IMG/VR virus record: IMGVR_UViG_3300010401_000040
Coordinates: 1 to 56,547 of that record
Source: a virus
Lineage: Duplodnaviria; Caudoviricetes
Length of the DNA: 56,547 nt
Strand: one strand, 5' to 3'
The notes below the pieces were generated by a model that was given only the letters and a program-made list of their open reading frames with translations, searched no databases and was not told the origin of the DNA. Numbering within the stretch: position 1 is the first letter of the stretch; each line of letters opens with the position of its first letter. This document shows, in pieces, positions 3,129 through 49,900 of this stretch. Position numbers and translations under genes: made by a program.

Positions 3129-3575
3129 TTAGTAGAGCCTGAGGTGCCTGCGTCCGCAGTGACCACAGGTCCGGTTCTCGTCTTTAAGGGCACGACTGAT
3201 CCCGAAGTGGAGACAGTCCGTGCACATGTAGCGCTTGATGCGCTTCAACCGCTGGGCGCCCTTGTCAGTCAGCCGCAGTTTGTAGCCGCCACCCGCCGAG
3301 CTAGCCTGACCAATCGGGATGCTCCGCTCGATTATCCCGTTACGAATGGCGTAGCGGGTAATGCTGCCGATCCAGGTCACCATGTGGCCGCGCACCGTCG
3401 CGCGTCGGCCACGCTGGTTCCTCGGCGATATCTTGCGATAGATGGCGTGCGGTGGGATCATGGCCTCGAAGTTTTCCCACACCTCAAAGACGTGCTTCCA
3501 CTGCTCAGTGCCGATTGACATAACGATCAAGTCCAGCCAGTGGATCTCAGGATCGCGATTCTCACGCTTCTTCAT
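3129..3575 (-). CDS. basic, probably DNA-binding protein with C-terminal Zn ribbon
   Basis: CTDC...CGHC; wing-like GGGYKLRLTDKG; start taken at MKKREN. Confidence 0.6.
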   Translation of the reverse strand: MKKRENRDPEIHWLDLIVMSIGTEQWKHVFEVWENFEAMIPPHAIYRKISPRNQRGRRATVRGHMVTWIGSITRYAIRNGIIERSIPIGQASSAGGGYKLRLTDKGAQRLKRIKRYMCTDCLHFGISRALKDENRTCGHCGRRHLRLY

Positions 3576-4518
3576 TGGAAAGGGCGTGGAGTTTTTGCTC
3601 CAACGCGCGTTGAAGAACAATTCCACGCTGCCTCTCCGACTCCGACTTGCACCCCATCTGGCGCATGCTTTTCTTATTGCGCAGGAGAATGTCCAGGGTC
3701 TGGAGCATCCGCAGGTAACGCGCCCACAGGCGGTCCTGTTCAGTCCCCTTACTGAGCACCACCTTGGAGCCTGACTTGAGGCCTTGAGCGTATTCCTCGA
3801 TCACACCGATCTGGGCCTTCTCGGAAGCCTTTTCCTCGGTGATGGCATCCACCAGGGCGTGGACCTCGCCGCCTTTCATGCGCTCGCCTTCAGCCAGGCG
3901 CACCGCCCTCTCAACTACTGAGTCGATCGGGATCGTGTTTAACTTCACGATAGAAGTGCGGGGCAGGTTGTCGGCCTTAACTCCCAGGCTTTTGAAGCGC
4001 TGCAGCGCCAGCTTCACACGGTTGTTGACGTGCAAGGTGTGGACGTGGACGCCGAACTTGTCGGCGGCTTCATTGGGTGAGAGTTTGTAAATCGCCATCG
4101 CGTTAATGGCGTCCTGGATTGCCTCCTCTTTCCCTTTTCGCAGGCCGTGCTTGCGGTTGAGTGCCTTGGGCAGGAGATCGATCACCATCGGGTCTTTAGT
4201 CTCCACCACGTAGAAGCCCATGGATTTCTGGTTGAACTCCTCAGCCGCTTTGCGCGTGTGGTTTCCGCCTAGCACCAGGTATTTGCCGGTGCCGGGCTGC
4301 TTAACCGCCACCCCACAGGGGAAGTCATCCCCCGACTCCATGCTGGCCAGGTAGTCAGTGACCACCGTGTCATCCAGCCGCTGGCGCCGGGCGTGGTTGT
4401 TGGAACTCAATTGCTCATCGATCTGGTTGAAGTTTATCTCTTCAACCTCCCACTTGAGGCCCCACTCACGCAGGGTTTTTTCGATTGCATCCGATTTTAA
4501 CCATTGTATCTTTCGCAT
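3562..4518 (-). CDS. ParB/Srx-like N-terminal domain protein with HTH
   Basis: R-x-x-L-D..V..Y...M..GD.FP...V......Y.VLGGNHT pattern (degenerate ParB motif); HTH-like SPNEAADKFGVHVHTL; start at 4518 after GAAAGGAC RBS. Confidence 0.7.
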   Translation of the reverse strand: MRKIQWLKSDAIEKTLREWGLKWEVEEINFNQIDEQLSSNNHARRQRLDDTVVTDYLASMESGDDFPCGVAVKQPGTGKYLVLGGNHTRKAAEEFNQKSMGFYVVETKDPMVIDLLPKALNRKHGLRKGKEEAIQDAINAMAIYKLSPNEAADKFGVHVHTLHVNNRVKLALQRFKSLGVKADNLPRTSIVKLNTIPIDSVVERAVRLAEGERMKGGEVHALVDAITEEKASEKAQIGVIEEYAQGLKSGSKVVLSKGTEQDRLWARYLRMLQTLDILLRNKKSMRQMGCKSESERQRGIVLQRALEQKLHALSNEEA

Positions 4519-4537
4519 TGTAACTGTCCTTTCTGCT

Positions 4538-4581
4538 AAAGTCCGTGGCTCTCGCCTGGTGGGCAAAAAGCCACGGACTTT
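4538..4581. terminator. 13-bp-stem hairpin between JAB and ParB-like genes
   Basis: AAAGTCCGTGGCT...AGCCACGGACTTT; followed by a T-rich tract on the plus strand and a short one on the minus strand. Confidence 0.65.
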
Positions 4582-4597: not shown

Positions 4598-5716
4598 CTA
4601 ATCCATCATGTGCCCGTGCCAACCCAGTTGGCGGGCAGCTTCTTCTTCTTCCTCTGCCTTGGTCATCATCCGGCACTCCGCCTGGTAAGAGGCAATGAGC
4701 GGGGTCAAGTCCAGATCGGCGGGCACTTCCTCCCACATCTCCCCGACGCTGACGTCATACTTCTCGATCGCATCCAGCAGCAGCTTGGTGTGGTTCTGGC
4801 CGGTTATGTCTTCAGCCAGTTCGCCAATGAAGTTGGCAACCTGTCGCTGCGCGTTCTCGTTCTGGATTTCAGCACCCAGCACCTCGACAGCGAACATGCC
4901 TACGGCCCGGCGTGCCCGTTGCCAGGCAGGTATCGAATTCGCGTGTGACCGCCATTTGTCTGCACCACCTTGGTAACTGTGCCCCCCTGGGCCATACGAG
5001 CCATACGACGGCGAGCCCGTCGAGACAACCGAGCCGGGAAAGGTGGGTTGTTTAACCTCGATTAGGTTCTCTTTCCACTGGTCCGGGAAACCAGGGATGG
5101 GGTCAGGTTTAGTGGTCATTTGGAATCGCGCCACTTTGTCCCAAAGGTCAATCGGGATGATGCGCGAGATGTTCTCTCCTACATCCCAGAAGCGCGCCAG
5201 GTCGGGCTCAAAGCAGAACCCGCCCAGGTAGAACCGGGCATGCAGGTCGTAACGGGGCGAGCCCAGGCTGCCAATGGTGATGTGCAGCCCGTCGATTTTC
5301 TCCTCGTTGTTCTTGTCGGTGCCCGACTGAAAGGCACTCATTGAACAGTGATGGTGAACGGTGCCAAAGTAGACCCAGCCATCAGCGTCGCTAAACTGCG
5401 CCCGCTGTTTCTTGGTCTCGTCGGTGTCCAGTTCCTCGGCACTCATCCCCGTCTTAGCCTTCTGTGGGAAGGCCCAGGCTGCCCAGCGCCGCTCTTTCAT
5501 ATTAACAAAGAGCCGCACCTGGGACTCGCTGTGGGTGGTGTCGTAGGTCCATTGGAAGAACCTCAGGACCTGGCACCACACCTCGGGATCGATCCGCGGA
5601 CCCAGGTAGGACAATTCCGCTGTGGCGTTCTTAATCTCGTGCTTGAAGTTGCACGAAATTAAACCGGGGAACTGTTTACTGGTCGTTATCTCCGGCTGAT
5701 AGGTGAGTAGTTTCAT
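4598..5716 (-). CDS. JAB/MPN+ (JAMM) metallo-isopeptidase, prokaryotic Ub-system type
   Basis: Intact JAMM motif H-x-H-x7-S-x2-D (HHHCSMSAFQSGTD), upstream Glu (SESQV), downstream DGLHITIG; long C-terminal extension. Confidence 0.9.
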   Translation of the reverse strand: MKLLTYQPEITTSKQFPGLISCNFKHEIKNATAELSYLGPRIDPEVWCQVLRFFQWTYDTTHSESQVRLFVNMKERRWAAWAFPQKAKTGMSAEELDTDETKKQRAQFSDADGWVYFGTVHHHCSMSAFQSGTDKNNEEKIDGLHITIGSLGSPRYDLHARFYLGGFCFEPDLARFWDVGENISRIIPIDLWDKVARFQMTTKPDPIPGFPDQWKENLIEVKQPTFPGSVVSTGSPSYGSYGPGGHSYQGGADKWRSHANSIPAWQRARRAVGMFAVEVLGAEIQNENAQRQVANFIGELAEDITGQNHTKLLLDAIEKYDVSVGEMWEEVPADLDLTPLIASYQAECRMMTKAEEEEEAARQLGWHGHMMD

Positions 5717-6303
5717 CGTTCAAACTCTCCTCTCGCGTTAAGGTTGAGCCACGCTCGCAAGCGCAACCGCACCGAGGCGGTGTCGGCTACCGCGCACGCA
5801 TGGTCTTCGGGTTCACCATCGCAATGTTCGTAGGTGTCGTCTCTGCCCTCAGGGTCCATGTCCGGCCAGTCGTTTTCACGGGCGTCCTCGCGCAACTCTT
5901 CAAACACCCTGTTAGCCAGTTCGTCGAAGCCCTCCTGTTCCAACCGCGCCTCTTCGATTATCTGCAACATGCGCGCATTGCTGATGCTCTCTTGCGATGA
6001 GCCACGCCGTGATCGGCTGTAACGACAGTTGCCCGTCTCAATGTCGGTATGGATTATCGTCGCCGTGATGGCGTCGGCTTCATCCACTACCACGCTACTG
6101 GGCTTAAAGTTGGTCTCGATCCAATCTTTAATCTTTTCGTAGGTGTCGGCCTCGGGTGGCACCGGCTTTTTGACCGCGGCTAATACCAGCGCACGGTTGG
6201 TTTCGTTCTGCGGTGCTGCCTGGATCAGCGCTATTACTGAGCCTTTGAGCACCTGCTGTATTTGGCTAAGCCGCTTGGGCTCGGCTAGTTTCTCCATAAC
6301 CAT
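5713..6303 (-). CDS. acidic hypothetical protein within Ubl operon (196 aa)
   Basis: GAAAGGAC RBS; ATGA coupling to JAB. Confidence 0.75.
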   Translation of the reverse strand: MVMEKLAEPKRLSQIQQVLKGSVIALIQAAPQNETNRALVLAAVKKPVPPEADTYEKIKDWIETNFKPSSVVVDEADAITATIIHTDIETGNCRYSRSRRGSSQESISNARMLQIIEEARLEQEGFDELANRVFEELREDARENDWPDMDPEGRDDTYEHCDGEPEDHACAVADTASVRLRLRAWLNLNARGEFER

Positions 6304-6976
6304 CTGTCCTTTCTAGTGCGTCCTTGATTCGGAAGGACTGCAATTTTGTGAGGTTTGCTACCAGTCGATAGGGGAGTGAGGGCAGCGTCTCACTCTCGAG
6401 TTTAGGCGCCTCCAAATGCCAGAGCACAAAGAGGTGCATAGCTAGTGAAGCGGCCAACGAATTGGCGCTTACTAGCTGCGGGTTTTCTTCCTGGGCCTCG
6501 CCGGTGCAGCCGATAGCTTCCCCCATCGGGTCGCCATCGGTGCCGGTCAGGATCTCTGGGAAGTAGGTTCTCGGGTCCAAGGAACCACCACGCCATTGTG
6601 GCTCGTAGTAGTAGGCCTCAGCCGAGTGTGTTTCATTGGCGGCAATCAGGACCCGGCAGCCGCGCATATCAGCCTCATTCAAGGCCGCGCGCCGTGCCGG
6701 GTGATTGTCCACCAGGGTGATGAGCCAGTCTTCAGGTTGCACCGTGAAGCGGCCCATGGCGAAGTATTCCGGACGCGACATGCAGCCATAGAGGCCAGCC
6801 AAGGCGATTGCCTTGTTCTGGCCCAGGTGCTCACGCCGGAATAACTGACGGTTCAGGTTCTTTTCCTCGAGCCTGTCCCCATCTACCACAACCACCTTTC
6901 GGGGTCCCAGTAGGAGGCATAGGGAGGGAGTAAGCCATGATCCGACGCCGCCTGCGCCGATAACGTAGGCATTCAT
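6266..6976 (-). CDS. E1-like/ThiF-family adenylating enzyme
   Basis: GAGGVGS Rossmann motif, DGDRLEEKNLNRQ, NKA, VDNHPARR, candidate catalytic Cys in IGCTG followed by PQLVSAN; lacks the MoeB/ThiF Zn-binding CxxC pairs. Confidence 0.92.
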   Translation of the reverse strand: MNAYVIGAGGVGSWLTPSLCLLLGPRKVVVVDGDRLEEKNLNRQLFRREHLGQNKAIALAGLYGCMSRPEYFAMGRFTVQPEDWLITLVDNHPARRAALNEADMRGCRVLIAANETHSAEAYYYEPQWRGGSLDPRTYFPEILTGTDGDPMGEAIGCTGEAQEENPQLVSANSLAASLAMHLFVLWHLEAPKLESETLPSLPYRLVANLTKLQSFRIKDALERTDGYGETSRAQAA

Positions 6977-7431
6977 GGTTCTTCTTCCTCCTCCTCAGGC
7001 TCACGATCATCATCAGTCATCGCGATGTTTAACCCGGCAAGCAGTGGGTCCAGCCCCTCGGGTGGTGGGTTAGCAACATCCATTGAGTAGTGACCGCCGT
7101 GGATCATGTCCCAGGTGTTGCGGAACACCTCGCGAACCGGGTCGGCATCACCATTGATTCGCCGGTTGTAGTTGTCTCTGCACTCACAGCAGAGTTGCCT
7201 GAAGGCACGCTCGCTAGCCGAGCCGATCAGTTGGATAGCAAACTCCCGATCGACGATCATCATGTAAGCGGCGATATACTCGTCGATGCAGGCGTTGTGG
7301 TCATTTGGTGAACCAAGAACCAGTTGGCCGTTGGCCTGTTTGTGCAACTTGATTCTCTCAAAGAGGTTGTTGGCGGTGTTACGCAGCTGTGGGCAATCCG
7401 CCAGTGCCTCGAATAGTTCAGGGTGTCTCAT
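6973..7431 (-). CDS. helical hypothetical protein within Ubl operon (152 aa, acidic tail)
   Basis: ATGA overlaps on both sides. Confidence 0.75.
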   Translation of the reverse strand: MRHPELFEALADCPQLRNTANNLFERIKLHKQANGQLVLGSPNDHNACIDEYIAAYMMIVDREFAIQLIGSASERAFRQLCCECRDNYNRRINGDADPVREVFRNTWDMIHGGHYSMDVANPPPEGLDPLLAGLNIAMTDDDREPEEEEEEP

Positions 7432-8129
7432 ACAACAAGTGCTGAGATGTTGGTGGCCACCTTGGTGCAGTAGGTGGTCCAGGGTTTAGCTGGAGCCATG
7501 GTTTGGAACCCGTCCTTGTTTTGAGTGACCCGGAAGAAGTTCTGAGTCACTTCGACATTACGCCACAGATCGGCGTTGTATTGGGCCTGGTCGAAGTTCT
7601 GGAGGATCTTTGCGACCAGTTCGTGGCTGGTAGGTGCCGCCACTGCATTGCGCAGGCCAGTGCAGCACGAGCAATCCTCATGCACATTGGCAATGGGCAG
7701 GCGCCAGGCAATGCCTTTATCGTCGATGGCAAAGAGCCACGCACCGCCAAAGACTTGATCATTAGCAGCAGTCGACTGCACGCACAAGCGCAGGTTCATC
7801 AGTGGGGCCCAGCCTAAAGGGCTCCAGGTGACGGTCATCACCGGGTCAGTCCCTTGTGATCCGAAGTTGGGCACTAGAATTTGGTTTCCGTTCAAGTGCC
7901 ACGGCGCCCGAATCATCAGGCGGTTTAGTGCGATGGAGTAGATAGTGAGGCCCTGGCCAATGCCCAGGCCGACTTTCATTCCATCAATTTCAAAGACTGC
8001 CGGGGCCTTGAACTTCACATCCCGAGCGATCTTGGTGACCAGGTCGTTTCCGATCGCGACCTCGTATTCATTGATGTCCCTCCGCAAGACGGCTCCGTCG
8101 TTGCGGATGAGATATTCTCTGGTAGGCAT
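7428..8129 (-). CDS. prokaryotic E2-like conjugating enzyme (Prok-E2 family D / PRTRC protein B-like)
   Basis: WRLPIANVHEDCSCCTG matches P..NV....C.G; downstream F.QAQYNADL resembles F..S.FN.DL; context next to Ubl, E1 and JAB. Confidence 0.75.
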   Translation of the reverse strand: MPTREYLIRNDGAVLRRDINEYEVAIGNDLVTKIARDVKFKAPAVFEIDGMKVGLGIGQGLTIYSIALNRLMIRAPWHLNGNQILVPNFGSQGTDPVMTVTWSPLGWAPLMNLRLCVQSTAANDQVFGGAWLFAIDDKGIAWRLPIANVHEDCSCCTGLRNAVAAPTSHELVAKILQNFDQAQYNADLWRNVEVTQNFFRVTQNKDGFQTMAPAKPWTTYCTKVATNISALVV

Positions 8130-8143
8130 ATGTTGTCCTTTCC

Positions 8144-8181
8144 AAACGAAAGTCTCCCACCCCTTCTACGGAGTGGGAGAC
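8144..8181 (-). terminator. intrinsic terminator-like hairpin between Ubl and E2
   Basis: Minus strand GTCTCCCACTCC-GTAGAA-GGGGTGGGAGAC-TTTCGTTT (12-bp stem, one G-U). Confidence 0.7.
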
Positions 8182-8199
8182 AATCGTTAGGCCTAACGA

Positions 8200-8421
8200 T
8201 TAGGCAGCTTTCTGGTTGCACCGGGTCTCAAAGACCACAGTGGCCCCGTTGGGGACCTCGACGTCGCTGCCCATCTCTACGCCGTTGATCAATGCACGGA
8301 CGTTGTCGCCCATGCCGAACACGGCCTTCACGTTGGAGTCACTGATCAGCTGTCCGATCTTGGTGCCCTCAGACACGGTTTTGGTGAGGGTCTCTACTCC
8401 GTAACGCAGTGTTACTTGCAT
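8200..8421 (-). CDS. ubiquitin-like (beta-grasp, ThiS/MoaD-like) protein, 73 aa
   Basis: beta-beta-helix pattern MQVTLRYG..., ALINGV, VPNGATVVF, flexible tail ETRCNQKAA; GAAAGGAC RBS defines the start at 8421. Confidence 0.82.
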   Translation of the reverse strand: MQVTLRYGVETLTKTVSEGTKIGQLISDSNVKAVFGMGDNVRALINGVEMGSDVEVPNGATVVFETRCNQKAA

Positions 8422-8568
8422 TTGTTTTGTCCTTTCAACTAACAGTCGTGTGCGTGGGTTTTTAATCCACATTTTGGTTTTGGTTCGTTCCCTGCACACG
8501 TAGGGAACGTCAGCACAACGCTGACTACTGCTGCCTGAAGGCACAGAACTCCAAGCAGCAGGTGTCAG

Positions 8569-8596
8569 AGTGTAGCAATATTGAGACGCAAGGCAA
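8569..8596 (-). promoter_or_regulatory. sigma70-type promoter of the Ubl operon
   Basis: TTGCCT-N16-TACACT with extended -10 TG (TGcTACACT). Confidence 0.6.
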
Positions 8597-8599
8597 GCC

Positions 8600-8992
8600 C
8601 TATTTACGCGCCTTTCGCTTCTTTTTGAGCGGCTTCAGGGTGAAGTGGTAGTTGTCGGGGTCCCTGTAGTTGAGGATATTACCAGAGAGGTTGCCGTAGC
8701 ATTTTGGATTTGGTCGCCAGGGGCAGCGCGGGTGGCACTGTTTCTTATGGAGTCGCTTCAGTTCAGCAACGGTCTTATTGGAGATGTGGCTATCGCCCCA
8801 CTTCATCTCATCAGCCCGCATTTTGCGCTCCAATGCCTTCGGCAGTTTTGCGCGCTTTAGCAGTTTCAGCCGCAGCCATCGCTCAGCTGTGGGTTTGTTG
8901 TGTTTGATGTAGGTCTTGCGGTTGCCGATGGGCTCGGTGGCCATCTCGAACAGTCGTCCGTGGTGGATGTGCCAGTAGTATTTTGCTTTCAT
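8600..8992 (-). CDS. basic hypothetical protein (130 aa; WHIHH and CHPRCPW motifs)
   Basis: GAAAGGAC RBS; probable metal-binding His/Cys residues. Confidence 0.75.
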   Translation of the reverse strand: MKAKYYWHIHHGRLFEMATEPIGNRKTYIKHNKPTAERWLRLKLLKRAKLPKALERKMRADEMKWGDSHISNKTVAELKRLHKKQCHPRCPWRPNPKCYGNLSGNILNYRDPDNYHFTLKPLKKKRKARK

Positions 8993-13489: not shown

Positions 13490-13758
13490 CGCGGTATCAC
13501 CAGCGAGAGGCTCGACTCCTGCACGAGCCACATGTCGTTGCCCGCCTCGACTTTGGAATTGATTCGAAACTGGTCGAGGACCGCCAGTGCCCCTGGCGTT
13601 ATGGCCGGGTCGCACTTGGGACCGACGGCAATAACGACGTAATCGATCGCCCCGCGGCTGTAGGGGTCGTAGGTCTCGGGGAACATTATCCCGCCGTCGG
13701 ACTTAGCTTTGGGCGGCAACTGCCCCAGGAGGACATTGTGGCCGGTTGGTCGGATCAT
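13486..13758 (-). CDS. groES: GroES/Cpn10-like co-chaperonin
   Basis: IRPTGHNVLL (P..D.V), mobile loop KSDGGIMFP, VIAVGP, C-terminal LVQESSL. Confidence 0.78.
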   Translation of the reverse strand: MIRPTGHNVLLGQLPPKAKSDGGIMFPETYDPYSRGAIDYVVIAVGPKCDPAITPGALAVLDQFRINSKVEAGNDMWLVQESSLSLVIPR

Positions 13759-14791
13759 AGTGCACAAACTCACGTATTTGGTTAATGGTGAACTCCCGCA
13801 TGGACTCGTTCTTCTCAACATGACGCGCGATATACCAGTCTGCCGCTGCCCTCACAGCGGTCTTGGTGTCGTAACGAGGGGCCCATCCCAGTTTCTCCTT
13901 GGCCTTATCTGAACAGAGTGAAAGTGATCGGTCTTCCGGACAAATCTCGTCCCTCTTTAAGAGCGAGCAACCCAGTCTTCCGGGCCATCGTTCCTTGAAT
14001 TGGAGCGCCACCATGTAAACCTGAGCTAAGGGGCCGTCGGGCCCGAAGTTGAAGGCCTCGGGAATAAAATTCTCTCCCAGTTTCAGGTAGCCACAGATGC
14101 AATCCAGGACGTGCTGCCAGGGCCGCAAGTAAAACGGCTGGCGCAAGTCGACGTCCTTGCCTTCAGAGAAGGCCCGAAAGCAATCCGGGATCAACCGGTT
14201 CACTGCGTAGTCACCGCCGCCGATCACATTACCGGCGCGCGCGGTGGAGACGTTTAGTCCGTAGCTGTGGCGGTAGGCATCGCAGGCCAATTCCGCGGCC
14301 ACCTTGCTCATTGAGTAGGGGGTAGACCAGGAGAAATCGTCGGTCTCCTCGCAATTCTGGACGTGGGCGTCGTAGACCTTGTCGGTCGTTATTACCACCA
14401 CGGGAATCTTCAGCTTATGCCGACGCACCGACTCAAGGACACTCAAGGTCCCCATCGTATTGGTCTCAATCGTCGAGAGGGGAGATTCGAAGGCCTCACT
14501 CACGATCGGCTGGCCCGCCAGGTGGAAGATAATGTCGGGCATCACCTCCTCGATCTGGTAATAGACCGCGGCCAGGACGCGAACATCCATCCAGCCGTCG
14601 CGCTCAAAGGTCCCCTGCCCAATCACTTCAAATAGATTTGGTGAGGGGAACGGCGGGTGGGAGATCCCATAGACCCTGGCGCCAAGTTGGTTCAACCATA
14701 GCGAGAGCCATCCTCCCTTGAACCCTGTATGGCCCGTTACCATGACCTTTTTGCCCTCGTAGAAGCCGTTAAATAGGTCGAGCTCCCTCAT
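13703..14791 (-). CDS. rfbG: CDP-glucose 4,6-dehydratase (extended SDR)
   Basis: VTGHTGFKGGWLSLWL, FHLAGQPIV, TTDKVY, YSMSK, RAGNVIGGGD, RPWQHVLD. Confidence 0.92.
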   Translation of the reverse strand: MRELDLFNGFYEGKKVMVTGHTGFKGGWLSLWLNQLGARVYGISHPPFPSPNLFEVIGQGTFERDGWMDVRVLAAVYYQIEEVMPDIIFHLAGQPIVSEAFESPLSTIETNTMGTLSVLESVRRHKLKIPVVVITTDKVYDAHVQNCEETDDFSWSTPYSMSKVAAELACDAYRHSYGLNVSTARAGNVIGGGDYAVNRLIPDCFRAFSEGKDVDLRQPFYLRPWQHVLDCICGYLKLGENFIPEAFNFGPDGPLAQVYMVALQFKERWPGRLGCSLLKRDEICPEDRSLSLCSDKAKEKLGWAPRYDTKTAVRAAADWYIARHVEKNESMREFTINQIREFVHYDPTNRPQCPPGAVAAQS

Positions 14792-15470: not shown

Positions 15471-16142
15471 ATGCGATTGCGTGATAGGAACAAGTTCCCG
15501 CCGGGGGGCTTCCGCTTTTATGTCCCTGAGACGCGCTGGAGCATCCAGCCATGGGTGAGTTTCGATGTGGCAGTGCAACAGATTATCCAACACCGGCAGG
15601 CTAATCCCTTCCTCACCCAGAGCAAAGGCTGGAGCACTGACCCTGGCATCGTGGCCGACGAATTGGACGCCTTCAATGCCGCGGTCTGCGAGCAGATGCG
15701 GTGGATGGATTTTATCGGGGAGGGAGGTGGCCCTGCGGGCCCCCCAAAAGCGATGAGCCACCAGTCACCATCCAGCCGAAGCGCTCAAGTTGTTGCGGGC
15801 GTTAAGACGATTGCGGCCTGGGAGTTGGCCGGTGGCAACGTGGTCGATCGAGCTCTAGCTAACGCGCGCGCTAAGACCTGCTCAGCCTGCATCAAGAACG
15901 AGTCGGGCGACTTACTCTCCTTCTTCACCGAACAAGCGGCGCGGCTCATCAAACTCCAGCTAGAGACTAAGAACAACATGAAGCTATCGACTGACTTTGA
16001 TCCGCTGTTAGGCGTCTGCTCGGCCTGCGGCTGCGTCAATAAGCTGAAGGTGTGGGCGCCGCTGGACATAATCTTGAAAGAGATGAAGCCCGAGACCAAG
16101 GCAGCCCTGGCAGCCAACTGCTGGGTGCTGAACGAAAAATGA
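15471..16142 (+). CDS. hypothetical protein with C-terminal Cys cluster
   Basis: CSAC, CSACGC and terminal CW. Confidence 0.75.
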   Translation: MRLRDRNKFPPGGFRFYVPETRWSIQPWVSFDVAVQQIIQHRQANPFLTQSKGWSTDPGIVADELDAFNAAVCEQMRWMDFIGEGGGPAGPPKAMSHQSPSSRSAQVVAGVKTIAAWELAGGNVVDRALANARAKTCSACIKNESGDLLSFFTEQAARLIKLQLETKNNMKLSTDFDPLLGVCSACGCVNKLKVWAPLDIILKEMKPETKAALAANCWVLNEK

Positions 16143-17797
16143 CCCCACAATGCTGGATGTTTTCTTACACGCCCTACCAGGGTGGAGGTAATATGCGCAG
16201 CAACCCCAAGATCGTTGTGCGGCGCACTGCCGCCATTGGCGACGCGCTGGCGGCGACCTGTGTGGCCGACCGGCTCCACGAGCTAGGCTATGAATGCGAA
16301 TTCCAAACCCATACCAACATTCACTGCCTCCTGCGCTATTGCCCCAGCATCAGTTCGCTGGCGAATCCAGGCGGATATGCCCACGTTGACCTCGACCGGT
16401 CCTACGAAACCAACCCAGCGAGGAGGAATTTACATTTCAGCGAGATGTTTATGCAGCGAGCAGACGAGACTCTGCGACCTTACGGAATATCGCTTGGGGG
16501 CGCGCTTAATTGTCGTCCTAGCCTTCGAATACCTCGACAGCTAAACCAGACCGCCATTGCCAAGTTTAACTCCCATCCCCGGCCCTGGATCTTCTTTGTG
16601 CCCCGCTCCAACACCTACAACGTGCGGCAGGTCCCTGACACCTTCTGGTCGGCCTTGGCGGAGCAGTTGCCCGGCACCAAGTTCTGGCTAGGCACCCACG
16701 GCCCCTGCGCAGGGACAGTCGACTTGGAGGCGCGCCACTTGGACAACGTGATCACCTGGCTCTCGGCTGCCGACCTGGTCGTCTCGGTCGACACCGGTCC
16801 TTTGCACATCGCCGCGGCGTTAGGTAAACAGATCGTCGCCTTGGGCCAATCCTCGAGCCCCGACCTCCACATCTCCGACCAACGGGACTTTGAGACCGTA
16901 TGGCCGGAAGGGAATTTGAATTGCCTCAACTGCCAGGAGAACATTTGCAAGGTCAATTATTACATGCCCCCTTGCCAGAATTTCGACGCTGTTGCGGTAG
17001 CGGTGAAGGCGAACCAAAAAATAACAGGTAGACGGAATGACGACGTCTCTGCCGCTATCGCCATTTATCAACCTGAGGCCAACGTCCTCAACCGGTGCCT
17101 GGAGTGCCTCTTGGACCAGGTGCAGGAGATTGTCGTGTGCGTCGATAAGGCGGGGAAGATCCCCAGCAACGCGCTGCAGCACGGCAAGATCCGCTACGTT
17201 CACCATCGCCAGTTCAACGTCGGCTACGGGCGCAAGATGAACTTCGCCACTCGCCACACGAGCGGTCGCTACGTGCTGCAGGTTAATGACGACGTCTTCC
17301 TAAACCCAGGAGCAGTCGCCAAGATGAAGGAGTGCATGGCGCCAGGGATCGGCATTGTCAGCTGCTTGCTTCGATACCCTGATGGAACCATCCAGCATGC
17401 CGGTAAGGTGCGCTCTCCCGGCCAGCGCGGCTGGGGCCACATCAACCACAAGCAGCACCTGCCGGATTTCAAGGACGTGACTGAACAGGAGAACACCTGC
17501 GGGGCCTGCTGGCTGGTCGATCGCGACGCCCACTTCCAATCCGGCGGTTACGACGAGCGGTTCTTTATTTACGCCGAAGACGACGACTACTGCCTGCGGA
17601 TGCGCAAGACCGGTTACCGGATTCTCTTTACCCCGCACGCCTCGGGCGTCCACCTGGAACACCAGTCGACCACTAAGACCGGTCCTATCATCGATCACCT
17701 GAACAACTCCAACCGGGTCTTTGGTCAGCTGTGGGGCCCCTACCTGGAATGGAACAGCAACCGAATCCCTGGGAATTTTGACTATTGTAAGGTTTAA
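16139..17797 (+). CDS. fused glycosyltransferase: GT9 (heptosyltransferase-like) + GT2
   Basis: RTAAIGDAL and SVDTGPLHIAAALG (GT9); NDDV, GACWLV, YDERFFIYAEDDDYC (GT2). Confidence 0.88.
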   Translation: MTPQCWMFSYTPYQGGGNMRSNPKIVVRRTAAIGDALAATCVADRLHELGYECEFQTHTNIHCLLRYCPSISSLANPGGYAHVDLDRSYETNPARRNLHFSEMFMQRADETLRPYGISLGGALNCRPSLRIPRQLNQTAIAKFNSHPRPWIFFVPRSNTYNVRQVPDTFWSALAEQLPGTKFWLGTHGPCAGTVDLEARHLDNVITWLSAADLVVSVDTGPLHIAAALGKQIVALGQSSSPDLHISDQRDFETVWPEGNLNCLNCQENICKVNYYMPPCQNFDAVAVAVKANQKITGRRNDDVSAAIAIYQPEANVLNRCLECLLDQVQEIVVCVDKAGKIPSNALQHGKIRYVHHRQFNVGYGRKMNFATRHTSGRYVLQVNDDVFLNPGAVAKMKECMAPGIGIVSCLLRYPDGTIQHAGKVRSPGQRGWGHINHKQHLPDFKDVTEQENTCGACWLVDRDAHFQSGGYDERFFIYAEDDDYCLRMRKTGYRILFTPHASGVHLEHQSTTKTGPIIDHLNNSNRVFGQLWGPYLEWNSNRIPGNFDYCKV

Positions 17798-43925: not shown

Positions 43926-46900
43926 GTGCCGACTTTTGAAGCCGAATTGTCTGATGGCCGGGTTGTAACAGTTGAGTCCGATCATGAGCCAACTGAAAAA
44001 GAAATCCTATCGGCGGTCGGCAGCCAAGGCGCGGCGCCACAAGAGAACCAAGCGCAAGATCCAACCTCGGCAGTTGGTGCCGGACTACGGTCCGCGGCTG
44101 AAGGCATTGCACCAGGCGCAGCTGCGGCGGCGGCGTTTGCACCGTCTGCGGCGGTTGGGGCTCCTTTTGCGCCAGAAACGTTCGGAATTGCGCCGCTTGC
44201 TACTGGGGTCGTAGGTTCGGCCCTGGCGGGTGGCGCGGTAGCACTGGGACAGCGGAAGCTGCTGGAGTATCTGGCTCCGGGATTTCTGCAGAAACTGGAG
44301 CAGGGTCAGAAGGAACACCCGCTAGCTTCCGGAGTGGGTCGAGTCGCCTCGGCCCTGCCCAGTTTTGAGTTTTCCCCCGGTCAGACCATTCGCGGCGTTG
44401 CGGCCCTGCCTAAGATCATCAGAGGCACCGCCGAGGCCGCTGAGAAGAAGGCTGCCACTTCGCTTGCCGCCCAGATTGGTGCGCAGACTGGCATCACTGC
44501 CGCCCAGACCGGCGTCCTGGAACACCGGCTGCCCACACCGACCGAGTTGCTGGAGGCTGCCGCTACCGCCGCTACGTTCGGCCACCCGAGATTTTCCTTC
44601 CCCATACCGCAATCACTACAACGACCATATGCCCGCCAAAACCAAGAAGCAGCAGCGCTACATGGGAATGTGCGCTCACAGCAAGAATCCACCGGCCAGT
44701 TGCCCGCCCAAGAAGGTGGCGCGGGAGTTCAGCCACGCCCCGAAAAGCTGGCCAAAGCAACACAAATACCACTGAGCGGTGCTGAGCCACCACCGGTCGC
44801 CGGTCAGGGCATCCCGCGGATCACCGGCACCGACGAGCTAGGTTATACCCTTCACTTCCAGGGCAAGAGCGAGGCTGGGTTCCCTAGCCGCGCTGAGGCC
44901 GAGAAGGCGGCCCAAGAGATCTGGGATGGCGTTCGACCCATGGCCGGGGACGTCAGTGACGACCTGGCTGAGAAGATGGAACGCGAGGCCATCAGCGAAG
45001 GCGAGAGGCAGGGTGCCCCAGTTAAGTCCGTGGAGAAGTTCGGAGACGAGGACGCCAACGTCCCCTTCAGCCCGTTCTTTATGAAGGCGACGGGGACCGG
45101 TGTTGAACTGAAACGCTCCACCTTCCGCGAGTGGATTCAGGACCTGGTCAACGACGGATTGAATGAGGACCAGATCCGGTTGGCAGTCCACAGCCGCATT
45201 GGTGAGGAGAAATTCCACAACGACGTGATGGCGGTGGCCAGCGATAAGGAGATCGCCCAATACTCCCAGGACCTTACCGCCGCCGAGAAGGCGATCGAGC
45301 GCCGCATCTATGGCGTGCGCAACCTGACCGACCTGCAGCTGGGACACGAGGCGATACGCCGCCGGTTGCAGCAGGCTCACGGCATGACGCCCAGCGAGTT
45401 TGCTGAGACTGTGGGCAAGGAGCACGTCACTATCCGAACGTTGGACGCACTAGGCCGAATCATCCGACGTTCGCGTGAGGCGTTGGGGACCAAGGCGGCG
45501 GGACGCCAGGGAGTGCTCTACAAACGCGCACTGACTAATATTGAGTATGCCAAAGCGGCGGTCTCGGGACGCCAACAGCCCGGCGCAGCCAGGCGTGAGC
45601 GAGAGACAACTCCACCTGAGTTAGCTGACCTGGAGGGGGCAAGGAAGGTTCCACTAAACCTTGGATCTTCCGAATATTTCAAACTGATAGACCAGATGGA
45701 GAAGCGAGGTGTGTCCGTTGACGGATCTCCCCTGAAGCGAGAGGACATGCCTGCGTTTTACGAGGCTGCTGAGGAGATACTTCTCAATGGATACGACTAC
45801 GCCCTTGAGATGGCTAGGGTCCAGGCCGATAACTACCCAACGGAGCCTACTCCTCAAGGAAACTCCACCCGAGATCTTGTCCACGCGATCGAACTGCTCA
45901 AAGGAAAGGACGTCAGGCTCGGCCCACTCATCCCATTCCCTGGATGGAAGAGCGAGACTCAGTTGCGGCTGGATTTGCCGAGTGCCGCGCGCCGCCGCAA
46001 AGACGAGCCCGGCCAGGGCGAGATGTTCGGCAAGCAACCACTCTCAGCCCCGCGCCTGATTAAGGCCAGCGACCCCGAGGCCCGGAAGATTCCCGAAGGC
46101 ACCACGCTGCCGCAGTATAACGCGAACCAGATTGCTGAGATGGCCCAGCGCGTGCTCCAGAGCGAGAAGCCCAGCTTCCGTTCCTTCTACGGATGGGCCC
46201 GGCGCAACCTCGGAGACGTGCCTACTGGACCGATGTTCAGTGTCTGGATTGATGCGGTAAATAATAACCTCCAAGGAAAGCCTGGCGCTGAACTCAATAA
46301 GATGGTGGAGCAGCTGGGGCTCCAGCACCGGGTCTACCCGTTCCAGAAACGTGTTGGCACTAAGCCGCTGGAGGGCACCTCGACTGAGTTTACGCCTGAG
46401 CAACTGAAGGCTGCTGGTCCCCTGCCGGGCGTCGTTTACAATCGCGTTGATATCCCCGACAGCCAGGCCGTGCCGCATGACCCGCGTGATCTGCCGCCGC
46501 AGATGGTGACCGACATTCGCAAGGGGGTTGAAGAGAAGTGGAAGAAAGAGAACCTGCTCCAGGATGAGCGGCTGATTGAGGCTGAGAAGAATAAGGCGGT
46601 GGAGCAGGCCCGAAAGGATTTCATGAAGGCCTTCCCGCCTGAGTTGCGGGACGCGATCATTGACCGTCGCGAGGCCATCAAGCGGGGCCAGAAGCTGCGC
46701 ATGAAGGCCATCAGCGCCATTTTCCAGAAGCTGATTGAGGAGGGCTACCCTGACACCTCCGACCTGTTACGCAAGGAGATTGCAATCGACGACCTGGACT
46801 GGTCCAACCCCAACGCCAAGGAAGGCGTGTGGCGGGATATCAGAGGCGATGAGGCTAAGAACGTTGATAAGCTAAACGAAATTTTCAGGGACGAGGCGCG

Positions 46901-49900
46901 CCGCTCCAGCTTTGACAACGTGAGCCACACCAAGCGCGTGGCGGTCATGCTGAACAAAAACGACAGCACCGTTGCCATTGTCTCAGCCTATCCCCACGGT
47001 CGAAGTGGCACCATGGTCTTTGAACCCTCTGGTGCTACCGGAATAAAGGGTAAGCCCAGCGTCCCGATTGGTTCGGTGCTGCACCGCTGGCGCCCGATCG
47101 CCTCGATGCTGCTCAAGGAGCCGGTGAAGGACTTCTATAAGAAGTTCGAGAACATCGAGAAATTCAACGACTACATCGGCAAGGCCGCCCAGGAAACCGA
47201 GCGCAGCTTTAGCTATGACCCAATAGGGGAGGAGCCTGGTGAGCATTGGCGCAATGTGCCCGAGTGGTTGCGTTCCGACTACGAGTCAGGCCAGATCGCC
47301 CACTCCGCTACGGACGTCCAGCTGGATGAGTTGAAGGCGATGGCTGCTGAGGCAGGTGTCCGCGAGCAGGACGTTGTCTCCCAAGGGGGAGAGACCACAG
47401 AGCGCTTTGGCACCATGGTCACCGAGCCGGGTAAGGGTATTGAGTATGAGCGGCGTGGCGGGCAACTCACCAAAGACAACCCGCTCTCTACGCGCGAGGC
47501 GCTGGAGTTGCAGGACTTCATCTTGGATGAAGCACCCGCAATACGATCCAAGGAAGACCTATCCAAAGTGATTGAAGAGTTGGCCAGCCGGGCTCAGACC
47601 GGAAGATTAAAGCCGCGCGAGTGGCTGGCAATATCGGCCCTGCGCAAGGCAGCCAGCGAAACCTACGTCCGCGAGAACGCCAAGGTCCGGGCATTGCGCT
47701 CCGAACTGCGTGGCAGGAACCTGCCTGCGGACATACCTTATATCAGCCGTGAAACAGCCTACAAAATTGCCCTCGACCGGTTCTACGACCTCACGCAAAG
47801 CACCGAAACGCGCGCCGACTTCCTCGCTGGAGCCATGGAACAATTCAGCCGCCCAGCTGCTGAGGCTCGAGTCCAAGCGCCCGGTATTCCGGTCACGTCA
47901 CCCAGTGCGAAAGGCGTCAGTCGCGAACTGACGATGCGGTCGCGCAGGCCTCCGACCTCCACCAACTGGCAAGGGCCACCGTTGCCGACTGGAGAGGCTC
48001 GCACTGAGCCTGCCGATCCCGAACTGCTTTCTCCTGAAGGCCAGGAACTGGCACGCAAACGCGCTGAGGCCCAGTTCCCTTACGAGCCCACCGAAGGCGA
48101 GCCGCCTGAGTTCAAACTGCCAACTGGGAAAGGTGAGGTGGTTCAGTATCGCAGCCGTCCTGGGTTCCTGATGAAACGCACTGGTGCTGAGGGTGGCTAC
48201 ACCCTGGGCCCGCTGGAGCGCCGCAGGCTGCCTGGTGCTGCCATTCGTGGCGCGGAGAATGTTCGCCAGCGCTGGGAGGAGATGCGCGAGTATAGCACCA
48301 AATACACGGCGCAACTGACCCGCTCCAACACGATGCGGGATATCAATTCCACCGCCGATGGCGCCGACCGCCAGGTGGAGACTTATTCCAATCGCGCGTC
48401 CAACGACATTCGGCTCGCGTCAGTGAAACCCTCCGAGCAGCCGCGCAAGGCGACGCTCAAGGAACGGTTGCTGGGCGGGGTTATCCACTCACCAGAAGCC
48501 GTGAAGGTGCGCAAGGCTGCTAAGGCGGTCATGGCCGCACTGCAGATTGCCACCGACGAAGAGTGGATTCGGGTCTACAACGAGCGCCAGGCACTCAAGG
48601 CTGAGTTTGAACCGTTATTCGAAGAGGCCGAGCGGCAGCACAAGAAGCGGCCTGTTATCCCTGAGGAACGCAAGCCGAAGTTCAAGCAGCCTGAGTGGGT
48701 GGAGGCCAAGCATTTCGAGAAGCTGATCGCTCAGGCCGACAAAGCCATCCGCGAGTCTGACGATTGGATGAAGGCCGTTAACCCCATCCGCCGCATCCAG
48801 GGGCGCAAGTGGAACCGCGCAGCCAGGGCGCTCAAAGAGGAAGCCCTCTACGCCCAGGAGCACTACAACGACCCGGAGATGCTGGCGACCGTCAGCACCT
48901 ACCAGTCGATCATGGACGCGCACTTGAACAACATGAACCGGTCCGGGTTCAAGATTCAGGGGCGCGACTTCTACGTGCCAGGCCGCTACGACGGGGAGAT
49001 CTGGAACGACTACCGATTGACCTGGGGCGACATGAGGATACTGGGCCGGAACTACCGGATGCCAAAATCCTTCCGAAATTATTACGAAGCAATTTCCAAC
49101 GGGCCCTACATTCCAGCCAACGGCGATATTGCCGACCTGGCCCAGCACTCCCTGGCCGCCGGTGGCCGCGTGATGATGCGCGATATCTGGCTGCGCGGGC
49201 TAAAGGAATTCACTGACCCGGTCAGCAAGCAACCGGTGGCTATTGAGCCGCAGTGGACTCGAGTCTCCGATTCGAAAGTGGACCCTGAAAAGATCCAGTC
49301 ACTCAACCCGGAACTCCAGCCGGTGTTTGAGGAACTGAACAACTTGATCGCGACACACGACCCCGATTCCCGGACTGGCAAAGAGGCGCGCAGGCGGCTT
49401 GAGTCTTTCCAGAAGGCGCTGGCCGCAGGCAGTCACTTTGAGTGGCAGGTCCCCAAGGGTAAGCTGGAATACAGCCTGGTTCATCCTTCCCATAGCTCGA
49501 AGCCGATCGCCGTGCGTGAGGGTTACAAGGCGGCAGTGGAGTCAGCAATGGCCCGCAGCGTGATTCACGATATCCCCGTCCTGGGTGATGCCCTGCGCGT
49601 ATCACAGATGTTGAAGCACGGGCTCATCCTGATCATGGACACCTTCCATCCCGGACGCCTGGCGCAATACGGTGCCGCCCTGGCGGGGAAGAACATCTGG
49701 GACATACAAAAGCCGGGGTTCCATTCCGGGCTGCATGCGCTGATGTATAACCCCGAGTCGCTGGAGCACGCGGTGAAGATTGGGGCGGTGAGCAAGAAGG
49801 CCGCAGACTGGGCCTTGGAGCCGGTGAAACTCTACGACCGTGGCCGTATCATGCGGATGAGTCGGCAGAAGCTGCTGGATTACCTGGTGAAGAATGGGCT

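Follow-up and report, generated by a model that had tools for sequence, protein, structure and literature searches.

A ubiquitin-like protein with a conserved Lys-Ala tail in a phage cassette of putative E1, E2-like and JAB genes

The window analyzed here, a stretch of 56,547 nucleotides that makes up the whole of IMG/VR record IMGVR_UViG_3300010401_000040, is the genome of a soil phage, and the virus record is complete at 56.5 kb. Positions 8200..8421 of its minus strand hold an open reading frame of 73 codons plus a TAA stop (8200-8202), whose translation gives a product of 73 residues with the C-terminus ...VVFETRCNQKAA; the stop codon and the final 13 codons occupy the range 8200-8240. The start ATG (8419-8421), preceded at a distance of 8-13 nt by the sequence AAAGGA, is common to all homologues. 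In the AlphaFold2 model of this protein (mean pLDDT 85.8; strands at residues 2-7, 10-15, 41-45, 48-50, and 61-66), residues 1-66 adopt the ubiquitin (beta-grasp) fold and residues 67-73 form an unstructured, flexible tail. When the model was compared with the PDB by Foldseek, ubiquitin, NEDD8, and SUMO led the matches (TM 0.69-0.76; 56 matches with E <= 1e-3), ubiquitin and NEDD8 being at the top with a TM of 0.75 and an rmsd of 1.9 Å. The protein, hereafter Ubl, therefore has by model and fold search the beta-grasp fold of E1-activated modifiers, and its gene is linked to that of an E1-type enzyme with intact active-site motifs; the terminal Gly or Gly-Gly of such modifiers is absent, and the conserved end is Lys-Ala. 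Its sequence matched no family in Pfam, PHROGs, PADLOC, or NCBIfam, and tblastn against 50,697 GenBank phage records returned nothing at E <= 1e-3.

The Ubl gene heads a minus-strand cassette that continues with an E2-like protein in which one Cys is invariant, a short ORF of variable sequence, a ThiF-type E1, an uncharacterized protein, and a JAB. The E1 (6266..6976, 236 aa) matches ThiF in Pfam (3.7e-13) and NCBIfam (3.8e-10), and PRTRC_ThiF at 1.4e-9, a value below that model's cut-off. It is a short, ThiF-sized adenylating enzyme with a single adenylation domain and no extra domains, and its profile matches the SUMO, UBA5, NEDD8, and ubiquitin E1s as well as MccB (E about 1e-11) over the N-terminal ~100 residues only. 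Across 20 sequences the GxGxxG, D32, D34, N40, R43, Q44, K55, D90, N91, and R95 columns are invariant, as is a G-C157-T-G loop (Cys codon 6506-6508); two matches to plasmids were uninformative. The last gene of the cassette (4598..5716) encodes a protein of 372 aa that begins with an extra domain and varies in its C-terminal half. The zinc-binding and catalytic motif of JAMM peptidases is E...HxHx7SxxD, and here E64...H121-x-H123-x7-S131-x-x-D134 (motif codons 5315-5356) is invariant in 21 of 21 sequences. We take the protein to be a probable JAB/JAMM metallopeptidase from this motif and from below-threshold matches to Pfam Prok-JAB (E 0.019) and PRTRC_A (E 0.069); comparison of its profile with PDB sequences gave no meaningful match.

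The E2-like protein (7428..8129, 233 aa) is placed less firmly. Its nearest clusters in the ESM Atlas carry the labels Prok-E2_D or 'PRTRC system protein B' (scores 0.95-0.97), weak matches to Pfam Prok-E2_D occur in 4 of 16 orthologues (best E 5e-4), and residues P145, N148, C156 (codon 7662-7664), and G158 are invariant, so that a conserved Asn-x7-Cys pair is present and an invariant His is not. The window's own protein matched no Pfam E2 model, its structural model (pLDDT 84.3) retrieved no solved E2 from the PDB with Foldseek (best E 0.11), and its profile found nothing among PDB sequences; we regard the E2 assignment as weak. Between the E2-like and E1 genes lies the small, fast-diverging ORF of 152 aa (6973..7431), with no significant family match in Pfam, PHROGs, or NCBIfam; 14 of 16 related loci have an ORF of 100-190 aa in its place, and sequence similarity is detectable only in L008. 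The 196-aa protein (5713..6303), whose place between E1 and JAB is conserved, occurs in 17 loci at 25-41% identity with P31 and R37 as its only invariant residues, and neither family nor fold searches gave a usable lead for it. Downstream of the JAB gene, an ORF of 334 aa (3562..4566, minus strand) is of uncertain membership: a weak HTH_psq match (0.007) is its sole lead, and the one related locus with a relative of it (L016) carries that relative elsewhere. A PHROGs search over ten large ORFs gave one weak tail match and nothing else.

With an E1 alignment as query, which was also the query of the genome scan, related loci were recovered that a single E1 protein did not find: the cassette is present on 22 distinct further viral contigs and on 4 contigs from MAGs. 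The order Ubl, E2-like protein, small ORF, E1, uncharacterized protein, JAB is conserved across related loci, and each of the 21 viral loci whose E1 is close (L009-L029) has the Ubl gene upstream.

An earlier note on this DNA had drawn attention to the end of Ubl, where the last glycine falls 14 residues short of the C-terminus and the tail offers Cys, Lys, and Ala instead. The description is accurate. That glycine is G59, in the loop preceding the final strand (61-66) of the AlphaFold2 model, and the tail contains Cys68, Lys71, Ala72, and Ala73. Two trivial origins of this ending, which the note itself had raised, were looked for: a sequencing or assembly error near the 3′ end of the gene, and degeneration of a copy that had lost its terminal Gly. 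Contigs from three public runs on different samples show 0 differences over 7900-8700, although all three runs are flagged as possible sources of the virus record and are thus possibly not independent of it (a fourth run had no coverage of the site); the assemblies show no sign of an error. The identical Ubl protein is on record from 5 contigs, the genes of the cassette are intact, and close homologues do not end in G or GG. Since the K-A ending is conserved throughout the family, in at least 175 clusters, error and decay are both refuted and we give them virtually no credence. The ending KAA is neither a sequencing error nor the mark of a decayed copy.

The family, of at least 175 clusters, has the C-terminal motif E-T-x-A-N-x-K-A, represented in the window by E65-T-R-C-N-Q-K71-A72 (codons 8206..8229, minus strand); Ala73 (codon 8203..8205) is a one-residue extension, which we propose is removed, at a position that is not conserved. 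Tail residues were counted in 155 proteins, namely 5 from one search and the best 150 of 175 from another. Together these hold 192 Ubl units, 186 of which align through the Lys71 position, and Lys71 is kept in every one of the 186, including one unit from a probable false positive (P0142). Residue 72 is Ala in 116 of 144 terminal units, Gly in 19, and Q, S, T, or N in the other 9, so that the conserved terminal K-A for which the note had suggested aligning homologues is found, with Ala or Gly at residue 72 in 135 of 144. Conservation stops right there. Behind residue 72 trail 0 to 20 variable residues (none in 49 proteins, one in 56, two in 15, and 3-20 in 24; n = 144), beginning with S, A, V, T, N, or others. 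Of the note's second suggestion, a different chemistry using the tail Cys/Lys, the Cys version is rejected because that Cys is not conserved: the position of Cys68 is Ala in 146 of 186 units and Cys in 22.

Many members of the family are tandem proteins of two or three Ubl units. Their internal units, joined by linkers of 2-8 residues, keep the Lys in 34 of 34 cases and K-A in 30 of 34; units within one protein have a median identity of 51%, and their tails co-vary. Eukaryotic polyubiquitin consists of head-to-tail units, each with a reactive tail, and carries one or more extra residues after the last unit. By analogy, the tandem Ubl forms follow the pattern of a polyubiquitin precursor: ubiquitin-fold repeats are arranged head to tail, each has a presumptive reactive tail, and one or more residues follow the last. 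They differ from polyubiquitin in having linkers of 2-8 residues, K-A in place of G-G, and units only about 50% identical within a protein.

A conserved K-A followed by variable tails fits the idea, put forward in the note, of an Ala-terminated Ubl whose JAB trims KAA to KA, and the note's interpretation of the tail is in this respect partly supported. We lean, with little more than even confidence, toward the following scheme. Ubl would be translated as a short precursor, from which the JAB of the operon would cut everything past Lys-Ala, here the single Ala73 and in relatives as many as about 20 residues, or whatever links one poly-Ubl unit to the next. Adenylation of the Ala72 carboxylate by the ThiF-type E1 would come next, and the activated Ubl would pass through thioesters on E1 Cys157 and Cys156 of the E2-like protein to an amino group of a target, a phage or host protein. 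On this scheme, Ala72 would stand where ubiquitin has its terminal Gly, Lys71 would stand where ubiquitin has the penultimate Gly, and the invariant Lys71 would most likely be the feature by which the cognate E1, E2, and JAB recognize the tail. What the sequences and models show is the fold, the motif with its boundary, the poly-Ubl forms, the conserved gene order, and intact catalytic motifs in E1 and JAB; where the JAB cuts, that Ala is adenylated, that Ubl moves through thioesters, and that it has a target are inferred, with removal of Ala73 by the JAB and activation of Ala72 by the E1 being most likely. Complex prediction for E1 with Ubl residues 1-72, run without controls, gave scores of 0.30 and 0.12, where the mark is 0.32, and speaks neither for nor against binding.

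Because residue 72 is neither Ala nor Gly in 9 of 144 terminal units whereas Lys71 is invariant, the mature end or the key chemistry could instead center on the Lys. Cleavage might follow Lys71, making residue 72 the P1' residue, or the Lys71 side chain might be the reactive group, perhaps as the site on which chains are built or through substrate-assisted catalysis. The variety at residue 72 (A, G, Q, S, T, N) is compatible with this, as is the Lys kept in the tail of PRTRC protein C, discussed below. We nevertheless think it unlikely. None of 144 proteins ends at Lys71, whereas 49 end one residue on, 47 of them with Ala or Gly; moreover, the would-be P1' residue is small in 94% of members, and we know of no reason to expect a conserved small P1' residue from JAB peptidases. 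E1 pockets, on the other hand, accept small terminal residues. When the terminus of a CBASS CD-NTase was changed, Ala was tolerated and Ser, Val, Arg, or Trp abolished conjugation, according to the portion of the report cited (PMC10097602).

The same source qualifies a premise of the earlier note, that enzymes of the E1/ThiF class adenylate a C-terminal Gly: this stands as the usual case, with a documented exception in the type II CBASS CD-NTases. Across 1,583 sequences in the sections cited, the last residue of these enzymes is Gly or Ala; Cap2 conjugates them, and an Ala-ended CD-NTase of E. cloacae is among those conjugated (PMC10097602). Within the portions of the literature cited here, type II CBASS is the only documented E1-type system that we found with a natural Gly-or-Ala activated C-terminus. 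In the account cited, what CBASS conjugates is an enzyme rather than a beta-grasp Ubl, with a variable penultimate residue (PMC10097602); Cap2 is an E2-E1 fusion, whereas the phage E1 and E2-like protein are encoded by separate genes. The phage E1 matches the PADLOC models of Cap2 weakly (best 3.1e-7) and over its first 60 residues only, and no CD-NTase or effector was detected by PADLOC among seven cassette proteins.

A parallel to the proposed trimming is offered by type II Bil: as described in the sections cited, the Gly of BilA is universally conserved, up to nine residues without conservation come after it, and the JAB BilC trims the protein (PMC10557695). The BilA of E. aridi has just one residue beyond Gly97, Ala98, which blocks adenylation until BilC removes it (PMC10557695), and the K-A-A ending of the phage Ubl appears to follow the same logic. 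The systems differ, on the same account, in the reactive residue (Gly in Bil, the Ala position in the phage Ubl), in the E1 (BilD is a large protein whose adenylation domain is inactive and which also has a CYS domain; the phage E1 has 236 residues), and in setting, Bil being a bacterial antiphage defense and the present cassette phage-borne. Multi-domain Ubls of Bil and Bub are described, in the passage cited, as staying whole (PMC11601603), whereas the phage units each keep their own tail. The reactive Gly, the large BilD-type E1, and the BilB-type E2 that define Bil were not found in the phage cassette; PADLOC 2.0, which may not hold Bil models, matched nothing in it except the E1 to Cap2.

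Another close counterpart, on mobile elements, is PRTRC, a ParB-related, ThiF-related cassette whose function is given as unknown in the section cited (PMC3318190). In the models used here (TIGR03733-41), its protein C corresponds to Pfam Prok_Ub (PF14454) and its protein B to Prok-E2_D, so that PRTRC likewise combines, in one mobile-element cassette, a small Ubl with a ThiF-type E1, a JAB, and an E2 family D-like protein, the last being a tentative likeness on the phage side. Of 105 PRTRC protein C and Prok_Ub sequences, 94 have K-G as their end, mostly as T-K-G, and a few carry extensions past it; all 4 genome matches to protein C end the same way; K-G as a defining mark of protein C is our own reading of these sequences and not a published criterion. 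Because of this ending, the phage tail looks like the PRTRC tail with Ala in place of Gly: in both, Lys is followed by one small residue, Gly in PRTRC and mostly Ala in the phage family. The K-G endings, in 19 of 144 members of the family and in PRTRC/Prok_Ub, also make Ala and Gly look interchangeable at residue 72, and this weakens the note's suggestion that an Ala terminus would be strictly orthogonal to Gly-specific enzymes. In PRTRC, protein C mostly ends in K-G already and yet the system has a JAB; the presence of a JAB alone is therefore no proof of trimming.

The common K-[GA] ending could be convergent. Alignment of the phage Ubl family with four PRTRC protein C sequences by hhalign gave a probability of 0.2% and no support for homology, and neither the window Ubl nor any of 100 family members searched matched TIGR03738 or Pfam Prok_Ub. 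The E1 scored 37.7 bits against TIGR03736 (cut-off 144.75) and the JAB 12.7 bits against TIGR03735, protein A (cut-off 101.8); no ParB family protein was recognized, the 334-aa ORF being unmatched by ParB models (E <= 0.1), also by those of NCBIfam (E <= 1). PRTRC protein C was not found in 121 genomes of a second order or in 4 genomes reached through the loci. The phage cassette also differs from PRTRC in that the last motif residue is Ala in 80% of members, that its Ubls commonly have C-terminal extensions or are tandem poly-Ubl proteins, and that it is carried by phages, whereas PRTRC resides on ICEs and plasmids.

A JAB can also serve a Ubl that tags nothing: in the CysO/Mec and QbsE/QbsD pathways it unmasks a sulfur carrier. 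Ubl could likewise be a ThiS/MoaD-like protein, unmasked by the JAB, adenylated by the E1, and used as a thiocarboxylate in a thio-modification or cofactor step of the phage. The short, ThiF-sized E1 without extra domains would suit such a role, as would the matches of 11 of 100 family members to Pfam ThiS and of 2 of 100 to SAMP2. We consider it quite unlikely all the same. A scan of seven to ten cassette proteins detected no sulfurtransferase, rhodanese, cysteine desulfurase, or biosynthetic enzyme. The cassette does hold an extra conserved protein in which an Asn-x7-Cys pair is invariant and for which the leads point to Prok-E2_D; poly-Ubl precursors, which occur in this family, are to our knowledge not a feature of known sulfur carriers. 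Iyer, Burroughs and Aravind, in the part of their 2006 survey cited, do predict sulfur transfer for several operons of JAB, E1, and Ubl (PMC1779556).

The same portion of that survey describes an operon, type 6d, with the five gene kinds found here: a Ubl, a JAB with an N-terminal domain, an E1-like and an E2-like protein, and a fast-evolving alpha-helical protein (PMC1779556). The likeness extends to the rapid divergence of the small protein and to the extra N-terminal domain on the JAB. The differences, as far as 6d is described there, are that its Ubl has a highly conserved C-terminal Gly where the phage Ubl has Lys-Ala, and that in its E2 a His following the Cys is invariant, whereas here an invariant Asn stands 8 residues before the Cys and no His is invariant. 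The survey also suggests, in the passage cited, that ubiquitin-related families without a conserved C-terminal Gly may act by protein-protein interaction (PMC1779556). By extension, the phage Ubl might never be activated, its K-A tail serving as a docking peptide while the E1-like enzyme acts on another substrate; the link from Ubl to E1 is, after all, a genetic one. To this we assign a low probability, since the K-A tail lies at the extreme C-terminus or before unconserved residues only, like the tails of activated Ubls, every unit of the poly-Ubl proteins retains the motif, and linkage to the E1, the JAB, and the E2-like protein is strict in 21 of 21 close viral loci.

If Ubl is, as we prefer to think, a trimmed and conjugated modifier, a wider proposal can be framed, though we hold it only tentatively and think it may well be wrong: soil phages would run a ubiquitination system of their own, with a JAB-cut poly-Ubl, a minimal E1 of 236 residues, and a divergent E2 that would transfer the units to host or phage proteins, in which Lys-Ala/Gly is a private code that keeps it apart from Gly-dependent host systems such as Bil or CBASS. 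That code would take in the PRTRC relatives on plasmids and ICEs. Bil, Bub, and CBASS Cap2 have so far been characterized as host defense, and the beta-grasp modifiers among them (Bil, Bub) use a C-terminal Gly; the phage system, if real, would be the mirror image of Bil, with tagging by the virus rather than against it. Here a complete Ubl/E2-like/E1/JAB cassette is found on phages, with a modifier tail of invariant Lys and then Ala, and a full-text literature search (most subscription journals being outside its scope) found no description of a phage-encoded ubiquitin-like system. Because the phage family and the widespread PRTRC cassettes have in common a tail of Lys plus a small residue, one series of experiments could inform both. 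Trypsin, cutting after the Lys before the terminal residue, would leave a single Ala (or Gly) as a remnant on modified lysines, and this remnant would be a direct mass-spectrometric handle for finding targets.

One further feature of the locus lies between the Ubl stop codon and the next gene, where a pattern scan found a GC-rich hairpin of 12 bp followed by TTTCGTTTGG (8152..8181, minus strand). Its folding energy is -38.3 kcal/mol (z = -6.4), equaled by 0 of 200 shuffles, and the element is terminator- or attenuator-like.

The ubiquitin-like protein (Ubl) is read on the minus strand from an ATG at 8419-8421 (a start common to all its homologues; in the window AAAGGA precedes it by 8-13 nt) to a TAA stop at 8200-8202; the 73-residue product ends in VVFETRCNQKAA. 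Its most C-terminal glycine is G59 and its tail holds Cys68, Lys71, Ala72, and Ala73, just as the earlier note had described it, without a terminal glycine. A sequencing error near this end, which the same note had allowed for, is not borne out: contigs from three public runs span 7900-8700 with no difference from the window (each run carries a flag as a possible source of the record, so their independent support is weak), and, decisively, the tail is conserved across the family. The 3′ end of the gene lies outside the coverage of a fourth, independent run; the exact protein is recorded from five contigs. Sequencing error and decay of the gene copy are thus ruled out chiefly by family-wide conservation, and an artefact of any kind strikes us as exceedingly improbable.

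A word-indexed search gave four close relatives of the Ubl, and a phmmer search, exhaustive over 1.84 billion representatives, gave 175 at E ≤ 1e-3, 44 of which reach E ≤ 1e-10. We analysed 155 proteins, five from the word-indexed search and the best 150 of the 175 phmmer matches; an HMM built from them finds 192 Ubl units in 154 proteins. In six units the alignment stops short of the tail: the degenerate middle domain in each of P0008 and P0009, partial units in P0068, P0135, and P0144, and a single unit in P0142. Each of the remaining 186 has Lys at position 71, one of them belonging to P0142, a repeat protein and probable false positive. The family tail motif is [VILF]-E-T-[RKA]-[AC]-N-x-K-A, with Ala (146) or Cys (22) at position 68 and Asn at position 69 in 128 of the 186 units. 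Terminal units were counted in 144 proteins, leaving out eight with more than 20 residues past the motif (P0054, P0068, P0081, P0112, P0113, P0139, P0142, and P0152). Residue 72 is Ala in 116 of these, Gly in 19, Gln in six, and Ser, Thr, or Asn in one each; the conserved K-A end (Lys71-Ala72) for which the earlier note would have searched the homologues is present. Forty-nine proteins have no residue past position 72, 56 have one, 15 have two, and 24 have 3-20. Since the first residue past it is unconserved (S 18, A 16, V 15, T 11, N 7, and others) and 47 of the 49 proteins that stop there end in Ala or Gly, constraint stops sharply after residue 72.

We suspect that the JAB peptidase would cut after Ala72, releasing Ala73 from the window's Ubl and longer tails or the next Ubl unit in its relatives; Ala72 would be adenylated by the E1, and the Ubl relayed via E1 Cys157 and Cys156 of the E2-like protein to a target amine, with Lys71 as a specificity handle. 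Taken whole, this pathway seems to us somewhat more probable than otherwise. A chemistry or mature end centred on Lys71 is the alternative on which the invariance of that lysine bears, and with constraint reaching residue 72 we think it unlikely. The suggestion that an Ala end would be orthogonal to Gly-specific host enzymes is weakened, because 13% of members end in K-G; any private code more likely resides in the Lys than in the Ala end. Longer extensions after K-A, in loci L002, L009, L010, and L018 and proteins P0134 and P0141, follow a loose pattern, x-[AVR]-E-L-[AV]-x-A (TAELAHA, TVELALA, VRELVMA, IAELVMA, TRELALA), and from this common pattern the peptide removed may have a role of its own.

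Two or three Ubl units occur in 35 proteins. Tandem units are seen in the DNA of viral loci L003-L006, where a linker of 2-3 residues joins unit 1, with the ending ETAANSKA, to unit 2, with the ending ETAANSKAV-stop. The Lys is kept in 34 of 34 internal units and K-A in 30; median identity between units within a protein is just 51%, so selection, not a recent duplication, maintains these internal tails. Within a protein, the variable positions of the tail co-vary from unit to unit. Judged from sequence, this is the pattern of a polyubiquitin precursor, in which each tail would stay hidden inside the chain until released by a peptidase. In the three-domain proteins P0008 and P0009 the first and last units carry the K-A tail and the middle β-grasp unit lacks it, so some poly-Ubl proteins may release a two-domain product.

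The Ubl gene (8200-8421), identified by its ORF, fold, and family, is the first of a minus-strand cassette in this complete virus record (56,547 bp, with direct terminal repeats). Between its stop and the E2-like start lies a terminator-like hairpin on the same strand (8152-8181; a 12-bp GC-rich stem, then a T-rich run; fold z = -6.4), which may terminate or attenuate transcription and so yield more Ubl than enzymes. There follow, also on the minus strand, a 233-aa E2-like protein (7428-8129), a 152-aa ORF (6973-7431), a 236-aa ThiF-type E1 (6266-6976; Pfam ThiF, 3.7e-13), a 196-aa protein (5713-6303) that, like the 152-aa ORF, has no family match, and a 372-aa JAB protein with JAMM residues (4598-5716). 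The E1 keeps GxGxxG, D32, D34, N40, R43, Q44, K55, D90, N91, R95, and the G-C157-T-G loop in 20 sequences. The JAB protein, whose database matches are all sub-threshold, keeps E64, H121-x-H123, S131, and D134 in 21 of 21. For the 233-aa protein the leads are to Prok-E2_D: its nearest ESM Atlas clusters carry that domain or the name 'PRTRC system protein B', and 4 of 16 orthologues match it weakly. P145, N148, C156, and G158 are invariant, and the Asn-to-Cys spacing of 8 matches that of the HPN-Cys pair in classical E2s. A search with its model (pLDDT 84.3) found no solved E2, so the E2 fold is only putative. A role for the Ubl as a non-covalent adaptor seems improbable to us.

The arrangement is stable. 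In every one of the 21 viral loci whose E1 is close (L009-L029), the Ubl lies upstream of it on the same strand, by about 1.2-1.8 kb, and in 14 of 16 loci a small ORF separates the E2-like and E1 genes. Counted once each, 22 distinct viral contigs of 27-72 kb carry both Ubl and a close E1, as do four of six MAG contigs with a close E1, the E1 lying at the contig edge in the other two.

An AlphaFold2 model of the Ubl, built from a 100-sequence alignment (mean pLDDT 85.8), has the β-grasp order strand-strand-helix-strand-strand-strand; the last strand is residues 61-66, and residues 67-73 are unstructured. Ubiquitin is its top PDB match by Foldseek (TM 0.75, rmsd 1.9 Å), with NEDD8 and further chains of the ubiquitin fold next; 56 matches have E ≤ 1e-3. 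The window's Ubl matches none of the Pfam, PHROG, PADLOC, and NCBIfam models; among 100 family members, 11 match Pfam ThiS and two SAMP2. The ThiS matches bear on a sulfur-carrier role for the Ubl, which we consider improbable. The E1 profile matches SUMO, UBA5, NEDD8, and ubiquitin E1s as well as MccB in the PDB (about 1e-11, over the first ~100 residues only).

The gene set is that of operon type 6d (Iyer et al. 2006; PMC1779556): a Ubl, a JAB bearing an N-terminal domain, E1-like and E2-like proteins, and a helical protein that evolves fast. Its Ubl ends in a highly conserved Gly, whereas the conserved end of the phage Ubl is K-A. Bil offers a precedent for the JAB trimming that we propose: in type II systems the BilA Gly is universally conserved and has up to nine unconserved residues after it, and in E. 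aridi Ala98, the only such residue, keeps the E1 site blocked until it is removed by BilC, a JAB (PMC10557695). Type II CBASS is likewise a precedent for the proposed Ala charging by the phage E1: 1,583 CD-NTases end in Gly or Ala, the E. cloacae enzyme, with its Ala end, undergoes conjugation, and replacing Gly by Ala is tolerated, unlike replacement by Ser, Val, Arg, or Trp (PMC10097602; commentary PMC10449767). Bub systems have a terminal Gly as well (PMC11601596).

The ESM Atlas lead points to PRTRC, a cassette found on mobile elements and described in PMC3318190 as of function not known. Across 151 genomes from a single order, the NCBIfam model of PRTRC protein C has four matches, three with the ending TKG and one with AKG plus an extension. 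A profile search from it gives 105 proteins, all with Pfam Prok_Ub; K-G is the exact end in 94 (TKG in 82), so an unusual penultimate Lys is common to both Ubls, whereas the last residue (Gly versus mostly Ala) and the frequency of extensions differ. Several others have 2-14 residues after TKG, and in P0217, P0228, P0233, and P0237 about 11 residues follow (TKGA[SG]DG...), a hint that precursors occur among canonical PRTRC Ubls too. Sequence profiles give no connection between the two families; their common descent is plausible from context.

The sequencing runs in which it occurs bear soil and rhizosphere metagenome labels, and binned relatives are labelled Verrucomicrobia (three), Geobacteraceae, Anaerolineales, and Terriglobia. 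In the Terriglobia MAG contig L081 (188 kb) a relative of the cassette falls within the first 13.6 kb, at the contig end; it could be a prophage and hence a pointer to a host. The Ubl has no match in 50,697 GenBank phage records (tblastn, E ≤ 1e-3), and a full-text literature search missing most subscription journals returned no paper describing phage-encoded ubiquitin-like systems. Only one of ten large window ORFs matches a PHROG, and the lineage is therefore poorly represented among described phages. One of the few recognisable genes codes for a ResIII/Helicase_C superfamily 2 helicase (52560-54188, minus strand; 1e-32). Others code for an NAD-dependent sugar epimerase/dehydratase (13703-14791, minus; Pfam Epimerase, 7e-35) and a two-domain GT9 + GT2 glycosyltransferase (16052-17797, plus), both suggesting sugar modification of DNA, virion, or host surface. 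The largest ORF of the genome, 2,419 codons, lies at 43926-51185 on the plus strand.
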